Source: Escherichia coli (lineage in GTDB: Bacteria > Pseudomonadota > Gammaproteobacteria > Enterobacterales > Enterobacteriaceae). From it: a stretch of DNA of 42,441 bases. The stretch lies in the NCBI RefSeq assembly GCF_003334385.1, contig NZ_QOWN01000037.1. One strand, 5' to 3'. The notes under the pieces are model-generated. The model searched no databases and was not told the DNA's origin. It saw only the letters and a list, made by a program, of their open reading frames with translations. Shown here one piece after another: positions 2,534 through 16,927 of the stretch (the first letter of the stretch is position 1; each line of letters opens with the position of its first letter). A program made the translations under genes and the position numbers.

Positions 2534-4414
2534 TTAATACTCCGTCACGTTTTCCTGTCGCCACGCCTCGTCATATTCCGATTTCGGCATATTGGCGATG
2601 TAGCTATAAGGCGATCCTGATTCAAGTTGCAGGAACTGGTGCGATTGCTCGTCAAGGAACAACGGGACACCACCTTCCCAACCTTCGCCGTTACGTTGTT
2701 TTTCAAGCATCAAAACAGATGCCGGAGATGCCAGTAGCTGTTCGTCCTTCTCTGACATCTTTTCACCACTCTGAACTCTCTGTAACGCTCTCTCGCGAGC
2801 CTTGTTACGCCAGATGATGAAAAGGTTGTCTGTCAGGTCTGTTATCGCTCCAGAGCCTTTTACGTCCATTTTCCCGGTTGGTTTTTCTTCGCTGTCTCCT
2901 TTTCGCGAGTGAGTAACGAGAATGACGTGGGAGTTTGTTTTGTTTTTGAAGTCGCAAATCAAGTCAACAAACGCCTTCTGCCCGTTATAGTCATCGTCGC
3001 CTATGCCACATTTCATCAGGCTGTCGATGATGAATAACTGGATCCCGTATCGGCGGCGAGCGTAGTCGAATATTTCGATCAGCCTGTCGGCTTTCGCCGT
3101 TCCGGTCAGGCCAAACACCCAAAGTCTTTCGTCATAAAATTTAAATGCAGAGTCAATTTCCAGCACTGGCGGCATCTTGCAGCACGTCGCCTGACGGGTA
3201 AGGCGCTTAAGGAGAATACCAGGCTTCAGCTCAAGTGACGCGATGCACGTCTTCACACCCTGACGCATTGCCTCAAGTGCCATATGCCCGACAACCTCCG
3301 TTTTTCCGTGACCGTTCACACCATTGACCAGCGTCAACTCGGCCTCACGGAACTGGAATTTATCTGCCAGAGATTCCCACGGTGGATTAAACAGATACTG
3401 CTGCTTGCCGTAGAAAGCGTTGATAGTGTCCTGGTAAAACTCTCGCGCGCTGTAGAGTTCTTCAGGATCGAAGTAGGATGCCGTGCCGATGTACTGCCAG
3501 ATTTCATCCTCGGTAACACCGTTCATCAGGCATTCGTTGATGTCTTTGTACGGCAGAGTAACAAGACGGCAACGATGTTCACCGAGTCGGCTTGCGATTT
3601 CCCTTGCGGCTTCACGACCAACATCATCAACGTCCATCGAGATGAATATTTCCTCAAACCTGTCGAGGTTGTGATACTCAAACTCAATCCACTGTTGCTT
3701 AGCGCCTTTCCCGCCACCAAACGGCACGGATAACGCCGAGATGCCGTATTGCGCATAGCTCATACAATCAATTTCGCCTTCGCAAAGTACAACCGCCCTC
3801 ACGCCAGCGTCCAGAGCCTGCCATCCGAACAGACAAGGTTCACAATCACCTTCTGCCATAATGACTTTCTTCCCGTCCGGGCGCTCAGTGCTGATTCGCT
3901 TGACCTGCAACAACTCACCATCGCGTTTGTACGGAAGCACCAGTGCATCAAGTTCTCGTTCTCCATTCCACACCTTGCCGCTGACAACCTCGTAGCGCTT
4001 TACGACTTCTGGCGATATGCCACGCGATTGCAGGTACTCAAGATGGGATTCTGTTCTGGTAACGTAGCGGGCGATTTTCTTGCGGTCAGGTCTGGAGAAT
4101 TTCTTCTCACGTTTGGCATCGAAATGGTGATCGTCATCCTTGATTCCGAGAAAGGCTTTCGCTTCCTGCATAGCCTGATGCAGGTTAATTCCTCGACATG
4201 CCATCCACAAATCAAGCATGTCACCGCCGTCCCCCTCAGCGAAATCAGCCCATTTTTTCTTGCCGCTAAGGTTGACCTTAAGGCTGTTTCCCTTGTCACC
4301 GTTGACGTTACCGGCAACCCACTCATGCCCCTCTTTCTTGCCGTTTGGCAACAGGTGCGGAGCCACCCTGTCAACCTGCGCCCAAAGCAGGTCGCTAAGT
4401 TCACTTGGCCTCAT
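2534..4414 (-). CDS. Replicative primase-helicase (N-terminal TOPRIM primase fused to C-terminal DnaB/SF4-like P-loop helicase)
   Basis: 626 aa; TOPRIM-like LCEGEIDCMS followed by DVDDVG; Walker A GVNGHGKTE and Walker B-like LFIIDSLMK in the C-terminal half; GAGGG RBS; sits where lambda P would be. Confidence 0.7.
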   Translation of the reverse strand: MRPSELSDLLWAQVDRVAPHLLPNGKKEGHEWVAGNVNGDKGNSLKVNLSGKKKWADFAEGDGGDMLDLWMACRGINLHQAMQEAKAFLGIKDDDHHFDAKREKKFSRPDRKKIARYVTRTESHLEYLQSRGISPEVVKRYEVVSGKVWNGERELDALVLPYKRDGELLQVKRISTERPDGKKVIMAEGDCEPCLFGWQALDAGVRAVVLCEGEIDCMSYAQYGISALSVPFGGGKGAKQQWIEFEYHNLDRFEEIFISMDVDDVGREAAREIASRLGEHRCRLVTLPYKDINECLMNGVTEDEIWQYIGTASYFDPEELYSAREFYQDTINAFYGKQQYLFNPPWESLADKFQFREAELTLVNGVNGHGKTEVVGHMALEAMRQGVKTCIASLELKPGILLKRLTRQATCCKMPPVLEIDSAFKFYDERLWVFGLTGTAKADRLIEIFDYARRRYGIQLFIIDSLMKCGIGDDDYNGQKAFVDLICDFKNKTNSHVILVTHSRKGDSEEKPTGKMDVKGSGAITDLTDNLFIIWRNKARERALQRVQSGEKMSEKDEQLLASPASVLMLEKQRNGEGWEGGVPLFLDEQSHQFLQLESGSPYSYIANMPKSEYDEAWRQENVTEY

Positions 4415-4521: not shown

Positions 4522-5382
4522 TCACCTGTCGAAAAACACGTAGCCTGTTTTCGATACGGTGATTGCGGATGATGGTTTGGATTGTGGTTGAATGGTTTCT
4601 GGCTTCTCGTCGTTCCAGCGTTGACCGTTCAGGTAGCTCGATGGTAACAACCTGTCGAATCCGAACTGCTTACCATTCCTGCATGCGATGTCTTCTGCCA
4701 GCATCGTGGCAAACTCGCTTGCCGTACCCCTGGTAGTTTTACGCCATTCCCTGAACTGTGTTCTGAATGCCGAAGCTGCGTTTTTCTTCCCGGCCTTCCG
4801 CATGCCTGCACACCAGAATATTTCCTCGAATGCCTTGTCGGTTTCTTCGTGACGGTCAGGTGATTTTTCACACTCCGTCCGAACACTTTCGGACATAGTG
4901 TTTTTATTATTTCTTTTTTCTTTTGTAATAGTTTCTTTTGTGTGTCCCTGTTTTGGTGACAGCGCTGTCACCGTTTTGGTGACACTTTTTGTCACCAATG
5001 CAGTGACATTATCACCAGAGTAGTGACACCCTTCGATTTGCCATTCCTCGATGTTCTTGTTAGGCCCGATTTGCTGGCCTTCGCGAAGGATAACCTTCAT
5101 CGCGATAAGCTCATTCTTGGCCTTGTTTACCTTCTGTCTTGGCAGCCTGGTAATTTGAGCTAACTGACTATCAGAGATGCGATCCATCTTTTTACCGTAG
5201 CCGTATGTTTTACGGCATATGGCGTGGGCAACCTTGCTCTGATTTTTCGTTAAATCTGCGCCGATAAGCTCTTCATACAGGGCATTTGCAAGACGGGTAT
5301 AACCATCTTCAACTTCTGCCACACGACGCTCCACAGGCCGTTGTGAAGGCCTTAAATGTGTTACGGTTGCAAGATTACTCAT
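4522..5382 (-). CDS. O: Replication initiator O (lambda-O-like N-terminal domain, divergent C-terminal domain)
   Basis: N-terminal region ([56 protein letters not shown]...GPNKNIEEW) parallels lambda O; iterons lie inside the gene. Confidence 0.8.
4895..5031. repeat. Phage replication origin inside O: four iterons plus adjacent AT-rich region
   Basis: GGTGACAGCGCTGTCACC (4955-4972), GGTGACACTTTTTGTCACC (4978-4996), GTGACATTATCAC (~5003-5015) and GTGACACC (~5023-5030) at ~23-bp spacing, each with internal dyad; AT-rich stretch 4895-4940. Same organisation as lambda ori. Confidence 0.7.
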
Positions 5383-5521
5383 GACCTTTCTCCTTCTGCA
5401 TCAGCTTCACTTTTTCCAACTCAGCCCGGAATCGACCAGGCTGCTTGAAGCTGGACAGGAAGCGATCACGTAGTATGTGTTTGTGAATTTTGTCCTGGTA
5501 AGGACTGAGTTGTTTTGTCAT
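5375..5521 (-). CDS. Small basic protein (48 aa) between cII and O
   Basis: [48 protein letters not shown]; GGAG RBS 5 nt upstream; its 3' end overlaps the O start by 8 nt. Confidence 0.4.
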
Positions 5522-5555
5522 AATTACTCCTGTGGATTGATCCAGTCTTTCTACA

Positions 5556-5834
5556 TCAGGCCTCGAAGAATTCGCCGTTCTTCGGGGCTTTTTCTTTTGT
5601 CAGCATTCTGGCTACTTTCTTAGCCAGTTCCGCCAACTCCTCGTCTTCAACACCCCATTCAAGAACAGCCAGAAGCATTCCCATTTTTGGGATGAAGCTG
5701 TCTTTCCATCGCGAAATTTGCGATTCATTAATCCCTAACGCGTCGGCAACCTTTCGCTGACCACGTACAGCAATTCGATTCAGGATGTTGCTTGTAATTG
5801 CATTCGCTTTCTTGCGAGTACTTGTAAGTTGCAT
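5556..5834 (-). CDS. cII: CII transcriptional activator
   Basis: 92 aa with the lambda-CII-like core ([42 protein letters not shown]); located after cro and nutR. Confidence 0.85.
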
Positions 5835-5892
5835 ATGTAAGTATTTCCTTAACTAATAAGAAGTTATGCGCATCAACTTATGCGCGTTGTAT

Positions 5893-5938
5893 TCCCGCAT
5901 TTCGGCGGGAATGAGGACCATGACTGTTAAAGAGCGGT
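5893..5938 (-). promoter_or_regulatory. nutR (boxA plus boxB hairpin)
   Basis: Minus strand carries CGCTCTTTAACA (boxA) then a TCCCGC-CGAAAT-GCGGGA hairpin (boxB); the same elements recur at nutL. Confidence 0.7.
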
Positions 5939-5942
5939 GTTA

Positions 5943-6143
5943 CTATTTGTTTTTCTTGTTGCTTGGGAAAGGACGAACTTCCTCTCCAATCACACTGCCA
6001 TCAGGCTTTACCGTAACCATAATGTTACGGCCTGCCAGAATGGCCTTGCTGATAGCGCACTGGATTACACCAAAGTCACTGGCTGCTTTAGCCTGTCCAT
6101 GGATTTTGGCGTAATCGGCAAGTGTCATTCGAATCATATGCAC
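5943..6143 (-). CDS. cro: Cro repressor
   Basis: 66 aa ([58 protein letters not shown]) close to lambda Cro; the true start may be the second ATG at 6137. Confidence 0.85.
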
Positions 6144-6165
6144 TCTCCGTTATTAACCATGAACA

Positions 6166-6233
6166 AAGAATACTACAGGTATTCAAAGCAATCAATACTC
6201 AGGGTATTTTTAGTTTAAGTACCTTAGCTATTA
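6166..6233. promoter_or_regulatory. oR/pR/pRM region: repressor operators with dyad AATAC-N5-GTATT
   Basis: AATACTACAGGTATT (6169-6183), AATACTCAGGGTATT (6194-6208), weaker AGTACCTTAGCTATT (6218-6232), centres ~25 bp apart; minus-strand pR candidate -35 TTGATT and -10 TATTCT overlap the first two sites. Confidence 0.6.
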
Positions 6234-6243
6234 GAATTAAGCT

Positions 6244-6960
6244 ATGGAAAATAAAAAATCACTGACGACAGAACAGCTCGAAGACGCTAAGCGGCTTAAG
6301 GCTTTGTATGAGTCAAAAAAGAAAGAATTGGGAATAACCCAATACTCAATCGCTGATGAACTGGGTATCACCCAAGGAGCGGTAGGGCATTATCTTAATG
6401 GCAGAAACGCGCTAAACGTTGAGGTCGCATCTGGTTTTGCACGATTGTTGCAAGTCTCAATTGCTGATTTTAGCCAGTCAATTGCTGCCAAGGTTGCAGA
6501 ACAGGCAGAAAGCCTTAAGAGCGATGCCAACGTAAGGTATGCAGGGGAATACAGAGCAGGAAAGAGGTATCCGGTGTTAAGCAGTATCCAGGCTGGCTCG
6601 TGGTGTGAAGCATGCGAACCATACACCATTAAAGACATAGATGTTTGGCTTGAGTCTGACGCGCATATTCAAGGTAATGCGTTCTGGCTTAAAGTGGAAG
6701 GTGATTCAATGACGGCACCGGTTGGGTTAAGCATTCCAGAGGGAACATTCGTTCTTTTCGATACCGGAAGGGAGGCGATCAACGGCAGCTTGGTCATAGC
6801 AAAACTTTCTGACTCTAACGAAGCAACATTCAAGAAGCTGATAATCGACGGCGGAAATAAATACCTCAAGGGACTTAACCCTGCATGGCCTCTCGTGCCA
6901 ATCAATGGAAACTGCAAGATTATAGGCGTTGCAATTGAGACAAAACTAAGGCTGGTTTGA
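6244..6960 (+). CDS. cI: CI prophage repressor (HTH plus S24 LexA-like autopeptidase domain)
   Basis: 238 aa; parallels lambda CI in the N-terminal region (LTTEQLEDAKRLKALYESKKKELGITQ) and the C-terminal domain (FWLKVEGDSMTAP...FKKLI); the DNA-binding helix differs. Confidence 0.85.
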   Translation: MENKKSLTTEQLEDAKRLKALYESKKKELGITQYSIADELGITQGAVGHYLNGRNALNVEVASGFARLLQVSIADFSQSIAAKVAEQAESLKSDANVRYAGEYRAGKRYPVLSSIQAGSWCEACEPYTIKDIDVWLESDAHIQGNAFWLKVEGDSMTAPVGLSIPEGTFVLFDTGREAINGSLVIAKLSDSNEATFKKLIIDGGNKYLKGLNPAWPLVPINGNCKIIGVAIETKLRLV

Positions 6961-6979
6961 TCACGCAAGGGGGACGCTT

Positions 6980-7348
6980 ATGGTTGGAACCGCTATAGCA
7001 AGCTTTTTTGGGATGTTGGCAATCTCAACAATTTACGGCTTAGCGCATGCTTTTATTGCGAAATCTCTATCAGAAAAAATAAGCCAGGCTTGGGCGCATA
7101 GATCAGCTCGTTTCATGATTCTAGTGGTCATAGCAATACAAGGGATATCTGCATTTATCCTCTATGGATCAAGCTTATACCTGTTGTATCAAGGCGCGAC
7201 ATTTACGCCTTACACCAGTGATTACGGAACTCTATACGATGGTAGTGAAGACATCTCTATGGCTTGGATCGTCTTTGGTTTATCTATGGCCGTGTCTGTT
7301 GTAGCAGACATCATTAAGGTAATTCTCGTCTTAACCTTCGCTGACTAA
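6980..7348 (+). CDS. Small 3-TM membrane protein co-transcribed with cI (rexAB position)
   Basis: 122 aa with three hydrophobic segments (residues ~4-27, 44-66, 93-120); strong RBS AAGGGGG 7 nt upstream; 19 bp after the cI stop. Confidence 0.6.
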   Translation: MVGTAIASFFGMLAISTIYGLAHAFIAKSLSEKISQAWAHRSARFMILVVIAIQGISAFILYGSSLYLLYQGATFTPYTSDYGTLYDGSEDISMAWIVFGLSMAVSVVADIIKVILVLTFAD

Positions 7349-7489
7349 CCCATAATCCCGGCAGCAATAGCTATCGGGATCCACTTCACATATCCCGCAT
7401 AAAAAGCACTGAACAAGCAGATACCGAAAAAATAAATATCCTTTGTATTCATCTGTTTATCATTATTTCATCAAAAATAAATACCTTGG

Positions 7490-7531
7490 GTATTTACACA
7501 ATAAAATACCTGCAGTATTCTTTAGCCATCA
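7490..7531 (+). promoter_or_regulatory. oL operators and pL promoter
   Basis: AATACCTTGGGTATT (7490-7504) and AATACCTGCAGTATT (7515-7529) match the oR dyads; -35 TTTACA (7503-7508) and -10 TATTCT (7526-7531) with a 17-bp spacer overlap them. Confidence 0.6.
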
Positions 7532-7566
7532 GCAGGACGCTGGTAGCCAAACGGAACAGATTGGCA

Positions 7567-7608
7567 GGCTCTTTAACATTGATGGGATTGTCCCGCCGAA
7601 ATGCGGGA
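7567..7608 (+). promoter_or_regulatory. nutL (boxA plus boxB hairpin)
   Basis: GGCTCTTTAACA followed 12 nt later by TCCCGC-CGAAAT-GCGGGA, identical in hairpin to nutR. Confidence 0.65.
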
Positions 7609-7779
7609 ACCAAAGAGTAGTTGGCTTTGGGGTGTGGTGAAGGGTTCATGGACGGGAATATGTCGCACGTAAAGCGGCGAGGCCTGCGGGACTATTGCCG
7701 AATTGAAGTCGGACGAAGCGGGTCGAAATGGGTCTCCCACCTACCACACCACCAAAGCTAATCATCTGAGGAACAGAAA

Positions 7780-16793: not shown

Positions 16794-16881
16794 TGATTTT
16801 ATTTTGACTGATAGTGACCTGTTCGTTGCAACAAATTGATAAGCAATGCTTTTTTATAATGCCAACTTAGTATAAAAAAGC
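16794..16881. other. attL: lambda P' arm plus 15-bp core, joined to the bacterial B arm
   Basis: Plus strand 16794-16866 is the reverse complement of the lambda attP P' arm (including AGGTCACTATCAGTCAAAAT arm sites); core TTAGTATAAAAAAGC at 16867-16881; followed by AGCAGG (complement of attB CCTGCT). Confidence 0.9.
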
Positions 16882-16927
16882 AGGCTTCAACGGATTCATT
16901 TTTCTATTTCATAGCCCGGAGCAACCT

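Follow-up and report, generated by a model that had tools for sequence, protein, structure and literature searches.

Does the operator set that lies between the divergent cro and cI genes of an Escherichia coli prophage define an immunity specificity other than that of lambda, and is such a specificity new? The locus occupies positions 6144-6243 of a 42,441-nucleotide stretch of E. coli DNA, the whole of which was analyzed and is referred to here as the window. The original prediction, made from the sequence, described three 15-bp AATAC-N5-GTATT dyads at this locus and two more at oL, and read them as operators acquired by exchange of the immunity region. Here we examined the dyads themselves, their relatives in other phages, the prophage that carries them and the fit between the operators and the two proteins predicted to bind them.

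Operator dyads and promoters in the two control regions

Perfect AATAC-N5-GTATT dyads occur four times in the window, at 6169-6183, 6194-6208, 7480-7494 and 7505-7519, where 0.08 would be expected by chance; none of 100 shuffles reached four. All four are confined to the two expected control regions, the first pair in the 106 bp that separate cro from cI, the second upstream of nutL and N (Table 1). The predicted 15-bp dyads are thus confirmed, with some adjustment in detail. Between cro and cI, two of the three are perfect and the third (6218-6232, AGTACCTTAGCTATT) carries two mismatches to the motif. Both dyads predicted at oL are real, but the range assigned to them, 7490-7529, was displaced by about 10 bp and cut the first one. 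The -10 hexamer TATTCT was correctly described as common to pR and pL, and each copy lies inside the promoter-proximal operator, which is OR1 in the case of pR.

Table 1. Coordinates of the immunity-region features within the window
Feature	Positions	Strand	Description
cII (CII-like activator)	5556..5834	-	PHROG 191, E=2e-37; cII at the homologous HK620 position
nutR	5891..5936	-	boxA CGCTCTTTAAC and boxB hairpin TCCCGCCGAAATGCGGGA; mapped from the HK620 annotation (offset +3999)
cro	5943..6137	-	64 aa plus stop; Pfam Cro PF09048, E=4e-26; lambda-Cro family
pR	6167..6195	-	-35 TTGATT (6195-6190), 17-bp spacer, -10 TATTCT (6172-6167); annotated in HK620
OR1	6168..6184	.	GAATACTACAGGTATTC; perfect dyad; annotated as OR1 in HK620; PWM score 21.6
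OR2	6193..6209	.	CAATACTCAGGGTATTT; perfect dyad; annotated as OR2 in HK620; 25 bp from OR1; abuts the putative pRM -35
putative pRM	6209..6237	+	weak -35 TTTAGT, 17-bp spacer, -10 TAGAAT
OR3	6217..6233	.	AAGTACCTTAGCTATTA; degenerate, 8/10 core positions; annotated as OR3 in HK620
cI repressor	6244..6960	+	238 aa; Pfam HTH_3 and Peptidase_S24
hkaS-like membrane protein	6980..7348	+	122 aa; PHROG 6534, E=6e-79; annotated as hkaS in HK620
candidate distal OL3	7434..7450	.	AAATATCCTTTGTATTC; 1 mismatch; PWM score 11.2; centre 45 bp from OL2
OL2	7479..7495	.	AAATACCTTGGGTATTT; perfect dyad; annotated as OL2 in HK620; overlaps the pL -35
pL	7493..7521	+	TTTACA, 17-bp spacer, TATTCT (-10 at 7516-7521); found by promoter scan; annotated in HK620
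OL1	7504..7520	.	AAATACCTGCAGTATTC; perfect dyad; annotated as OL1 in HK620
nutL	7567..7608	+	boxA GCTCTTTAAC and the same boxB as nutR; mapped from the HK620 annotation (offset +4001)
N antiterminator (HK620 type)	7940..8212	+	PHROG 271, E=1e-33; 97% nucleotide identity to HK620 N

Operators were scored with a position weight matrix (PWM) trained on the four perfect dyads of the window only. The right operator sites are centred at 6176 (OR1), 6201 (OR2) and 6225 (OR3). OR3 scored 7.5, whereas the third-best match in shuffles averaged about 8, and taken alone it is no better than genome-wide chance. Its standing comes from its position, because it lies 24 bp from OR2 and directly on top of the TAGAAT hexamer, the putative -10 of pRM. 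A site at the OR3 position is also present in three phages of other genera (see below).

The weakness of OR3, the AT-richness of the region and the near-chance frequency of the motif once two mismatches are allowed (29 matches in the whole window versus 16.5 expected) could all be taken to mean that the dyads are compositional features of AT-rich promoter DNA to which no protein binds. The excess of perfect dyads makes this reading highly improbable, as do two further observations described below: the motif, the number of sites and their spacing persist in phages of three further genera whose spacers and flanks have diverged, and the sites fit the Cro recognition code. We therefore continue to treat the dyads as operators.

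The layout around these operators is that of a lambda-type switch. Divergent cI and cro flank a tripartite operator that overlaps the hexamers of pR and of the putative pRM, and a second operator cluster is present at pL, where OL1 and OL2 overlap TTTACA-17-TATTCT and are followed by nutL and N. The -35 of pR overlaps the edge of OR2; with only 8 of 12 consensus positions, pR fell below the threshold of the promoter scan. The hexamers of the putative pRM end 6 nt before the cI ATG, an arrangement that would yield a leaderless-type cI mRNA as in lambda. Both the -10 (TAGAAT or TACAAT) and its short distance to the ATG are conserved in the phages Pocitis76, OS31 and EhrS_49; a promoter function is proposed for pRM. 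Downstream of cI, the gene for the small hkaS-like membrane protein occupies the place held by rexAB in lambda.

One additional operator-like sequence, GAATACTCAGAGAATTG at 8449-8465, with a single mismatch, is found within the sieB-like gene (minus strand, 8234-8773). Its PWM score of 15 is in the range of shuffled maxima, and it is probably a chance occurrence.

Relation to HK620 and mEpX2 and setting in the prophage

The operators differ from those of lambda, and apparently also from those of 434 and P22, and a full-text literature search with the literal operator sequences returned no match. On these grounds one could suspect a new, previously undescribed immunity specificity, as the original prediction implied. 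Such novelty is extremely unlikely, since HK620 and mEpX2 have exactly the same OR region (100% identity over window positions 6100-6260), and the sites have stood in the HK620 GenBank record (AF335538; Clark et al. 2001) since 2001. That record annotates OR1, OR2, OR3, pR, OL1, OL2, OL3, pL, nutL, nutR, tR1 and pRE, and after coordinate transfer its OR1 to OR3, OL1 and OL2 fall exactly on the dyads of the window. The OL region shows scattered substitutions only relative to HK620 and mEpX2; the half-sites of OL1 and OL2 are identical, and OL1 differs by one spacer base (G versus A).

The similarity extends well beyond the operators. At 97-99% identity, a 2.2-kb query that includes them matched HK620, HK630, HK140, mEpX2, HF4s and HZ41, as well as two Stx2c phages and two EHEC podoviruses. 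The HK620-type segment spans 5375-7642 (2268 bp, covering cII, cro, OR, cI, hkaS, OL and nutL) at 98.3% identity and resumes at N, which is likewise of the HK620 type. The CI N-terminal domain is 100% identical to those of mEpX2 and HK140 and 98.9% identical to that of HK620. Sixteen phage records carry a domain at least 98.9% identical, and at least 80% of the immunity region is present in approximately 146 of 5426 complete E. coli genomes, which argues further against a new specificity.

We conclude that the immunity module of the prophage is very probably the one already described for coliphages HK620 and mEpX2, with the dyads as its CI/Cro operators. Phage mEpX2 has been assigned to a different immunity group than lambda, HK022, phi80 and others, and lambda/HK022/mEpX2 triple lysogens have been made (PMC3442831); heteroimmunity to lambda has thus been seen with a phage whose OR is identical to the one studied here. 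The HK620 operator annotation appears to be sequence-based. In the searchable literature, where HK620 receives only passing mentions, we found no binding, footprint or immunity experiment on this repressor-operator pair. The original prediction had allowed that an exact match to a characterized immunity type would turn it into a routine result. Comparison with known operators led to just such a match in HK620 and mEpX2, so the finding is correct but routine.

Besides the OL1 spacer base, the prophage differs from HK620 here by a 286-bp segment between nutL and N (7643-7928) that is absent from both HK620 and mEpX2. Its first 135 nt recur at 95.6% identity in 933W, several Stx phages, mEp234 and HK106. 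The RNA of the structured part (7612-7770) has a folding energy of -61.5 kcal/mol (z = -3.8; 0 of 200 shuffles were as stable) and a long closing stem. Rfam and tRNA scans of 5300-8300, this insert included, gave no match. Just upstream of N the insert also holds a 39-aa hydrophobic ORF on the plus strand (7780-7899, MLDIMTNPILGGLVTTFAICFGFTIWSEVDDWMWERKNK) that matches PHROG 7482 (E=8e-25), a family without an assigned function.

Outside the module the two phages part company: HK620 is a P22-like podovirus, whereas the prophage described here combines the module with lambda int and att, a primase-helicase replication module and lambda-like nin genes. The window comes from the E. coli chromosome; at the ybhC-gal-modF locus, every complete E. 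coli genome matches its positions 16000-40000. The stretch from position 1 to approximately 16881 represents the early half of a lambdoid prophage, inside which the window ends. Read along the plus strand, the order is nin genes, primase-helicase, O-like initiator, cII and cro (all on the minus strand), then cI, the 122-aa membrane protein, pL/nutL, N, the sieB-like gene, recombination genes, xis and int. Identity to lambda stops exactly at the lambda att core (lambda coordinate 27724; window 16881-16895), where ybhC adjoins, and this junction is the classical lambda attachment site.

The original prediction had inferred an immunity-region swap from operators of non-lambda type in the company of lambda-type int and nin genes. 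The lambda-like parts are indeed present: the 356-aa integrase with the xis/attP arm is 97.6% identical to lambda at the nucleotide level, and ninB and ninD-F are 96-98% identical. The only other parts close to lambda are the ral-ea10-cIII stretch and small pieces of the ea region. At the nucleotide level the immunity region does not resemble that of lambda and gives only short, weak matches, of which cro, 71% over 142 bp, is the longest. A swap is not the right description, and a lambda genome with only its immunity region exchanged was rejected. Other parts depart from lambda too, namely N, the replication genes, the Erf-type recombination genes and the sieB-like gene, which makes the prophage an ordinary lambdoid mosaic.

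The replication module of this mosaic (2534-4414, minus strand) encodes a lambda-O-like initiator of 286 aa and a 626-aa primase-helicase, rather than lambda P or a DnaB-type helicase. The same pairing of initiator and primase-helicase is found in mEp043, Sf101 and vB_EcoP-720R6.

Operator specificity and its conservation in distant phages

Non-lambda specificity does not imply a module unrelated to that of lambda, and any suggestion of this kind in the original prediction was not upheld. Over its whole length CI shares 43% identity with lambda CI, and its best PDB match is the lambda repressor structure 3bdn; Cro is 63% identical to lambda Cro, with lambda Cro structures 1cop and 6cro as best matches. 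CI also has the makeup of a self-cleaving HTH plus S24 repressor: its IQAGSW, GDSMT and FKKL motifs align with VQAGMF, GNSMT and FKKL of lambda, which places the Ala-Gly cleavage site and the catalytic Ser and Lys in register. From the homology of both proteins, we regard the module as a diverged homologue of lambda's own. The likeness includes 17-bp operators centred on a base pair, a tripartite OR with a spacing of 24-25 bp, O1 and O2 sites that overlap pR and pL, a cI start directly after the pRM -10, and a conserved pL transcript start.

The last of these features lies downstream of the pL -10. The sequence CATCAGCAGGACGC (7521-7540) is common to the prophage, lambda, Pocitis76 and EhrS_49 despite their differing operators, and coincides with the start of the lambda pL transcript. 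This conserved transcript start may also act as a joint for recombination where the immunity module ends.

The operators themselves set the module apart from lambda. Written as 17-mers, the ten half-sites read nAATACC(t), with A2, T4 and A5 in all ten, A3 and C6 in nine of ten, and C or T at position 7. The twelve half-sites of lambda read TATCACCG, with both A2 and C4 in 12 of 12. Positions A2, A5, C6 and C7 are held in common, while positions 1, 3, 4 and 8 differ, mainly positions 3 and 4 (AATAC here versus ATCAC). At base pair 4, the C of lambda is replaced by T in every half-site of the prophage. The operators do not match TATCACCG, the pattern of lambda immunity, and conversely a scan of the lambda immunity region with the window-trained PWM gave no match above 5. 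The central part of the original prediction, that the dyads are CI/Cro operators of non-lambda specificity, accordingly held up.

The changes in the DNA are paralleled by changes in the proteins. In lambda, Gln44 and Ser45 of CI and Gln27 and Ser28 of Cro contact base pairs 2 and 4 (PMC5222340). The Gln is kept in both proteins of the prophage, and so is A2. Both have lost the Ser of the recognition helix (residue H2), which is Gly45 in CI and Cys in Cro, and none of the half-sites keeps the lambda base at pair 4. In the 'evolutionary code' for Cro (Hall et al. 2011, summarized in PMC6649833), Gln H1 goes with A2, Ala H3 with A5, and Lys H6 with G-6, that is, C6. The Cro helix Q-C-A-I-S-K and the half-site frequencies given above agree with this code at all three positions. 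This agreement, drawn from homology, provides an independent tie between these dyads and these proteins.

More distant phages provided a comparative test. In a tblastn search, the CI N-terminal domain was 84% identical to that of Serratia phage OS31 (vB_SspS_OS31), 79% to Hafnia phage Pocitis76, 68% to Erwinia phage EhrS_49 (vB_EhrS_49), 68% to Escherichia phage Fostie and 53% to lambda. OS31, Pocitis76 and EhrS_49, in which the domain is 68-84% identical, keep the CI recognition helix (T/S)QGAVGHYLNGRN. In each of the three, the window-trained PWM found three sites between cro and cI, spaced 24-25 and then 23-24 bp apart, and three more upstream of N. They share the (A/T)ATAC-N5-GTAT(T/A) motif and the matching positions of the OR and OL sites with the prophage, and differ from it in host genus and in the place of the third OL site. 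In alignments, the ATAC/GTAT cores are conserved and the spacers and flanks have diverged, a pattern that speaks against chance as the source of the dyads.

Fostie presents a variant of the same theme. Its CI helix has Ser at the position of Gly45 (TQSAVGHYLNGRN), and it carries AGTAC-type dyads such as TAGTACTTTGAGTACTA, not AATAC, at Fostie positions 2420-2495 and 3315-3331. The combination of Ser with AGTAC half-sites is suggestive and may be a further case of protein-DNA covariation.

Third left operator and wiring of the switch

The layout suggests how the switch may operate, by analogy with lambda. CI dimers, each subunit comprising an HTH domain and an S24 autopeptidase, would occupy OR1/OR2 and OL1/OL2 and block pR and pL, the hexamers of which lie inside or against the operators. 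CI bound at OR2 would abut the weak -35 of pRM, which would in turn produce a near-leaderless cI mRNA starting at or next to the cI ATG. Binding of Cro, or of excess CI, to the degenerate OR3 over the pRM -10 could shut off cI. During an SOS response, RecA-stimulated self-cleavage at the conserved Ala-Gly would remove CI and induce the prophage. Binding, cooperativity, promoter activities and the induction route are predicted here from the lambda precedent, and activation of pRM, looping between OL and OR and differential preferences of Cro and CI for the sites would follow from the layout and the homology of the parts.

The position of the third OL site is less clear. The OL3 annotated in HK620 maps to 7457-7473 (TTATCATTATTTCATCA), and with a PWM score of -29 it is unsupported as a match to the motif. 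The dyad at 7434-7450 scores 11.2, a value equal to the mean best match in shuffled windows. A site at the aligned position is present in OS31, with the same 45-bp centre-to-centre spacing from OL2. The third site lies 29 bp from OL2 in Pocitis76 and 21 bp in EhrS_49, so that a third OL site seems general in the group with a variable position. We tentatively favour 7434-7450 over 7457-7473 as the OL3 candidate of the HK620-type module, and the HK620 record may place OL3 wrongly.

On the minus strand, the interval from the hkaS-like gene to OL contains a small hydrophobic ORF of 35 aa (7345-7452, MNTKDIYFFGICLFSAFYAGYVKWIPIAIAAGIMG). It has no PHROG family match, and the HK620 record does not annotate it. 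The candidate distal OL3 overlaps the start codon of this ORF.

These observations bear on whether the operators, while real, serve a switch that is wired differently from that of lambda, with two strong OL sites and a distal third site 45 bp away in place of the HK620 OL3, and with cooperativity or OL-OR looping altered as for 933W. We consider this possible, with the odds somewhat against it. The contrast in PWM score between the two OL3 candidates and the aligned site in OS31 speak for such wiring. So does the OL-OR distance, which is 1.29 kb here compared with approximately 2.3 kb quoted for lambda. The 933W repressor is reported to bind non-cooperatively (PMC3317979), and we counted this precedent on the same side. 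The score of the distal dyad does not exceed what shuffled windows yield on average, this dyad also overlaps the start of the minus-strand ORF, and the position of the third site is not conserved in Pocitis76 and EhrS_49; all three points weigh against a distinct wiring.

Whichever way the left operator is arranged, the dyads are best read as operators of the HK620/mEpX2 type. As such they re-identify an immunity type that has been published and annotated and that E. coli prophages, some Stx phages included, commonly carry. Their interest lies in the relation to lambda. It is conceivable, though we would not yet call it probable, that lambda's switch has a natural sister in the HK620-type module, where the change of specificity was mostly one coordinated step, with base pair 4 going from C to T while H2 went from Ser45 to Gly in CI and from Ser28 to Cys in Cro, joined by an OL that has two strong sites and a distal third 45 bp away and would imply a different geometry of cooperativity or looping. 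Repressor, Cro and operators are all homologous to those of lambda, and very few coordinated changes in protein and DNA appear to underlie heteroimmunity. The module can thus be viewed as a natural experiment, suited to tests of the recognition rules of helix-turn-helix proteins and to the search for orthogonal repressor-operator pairs.
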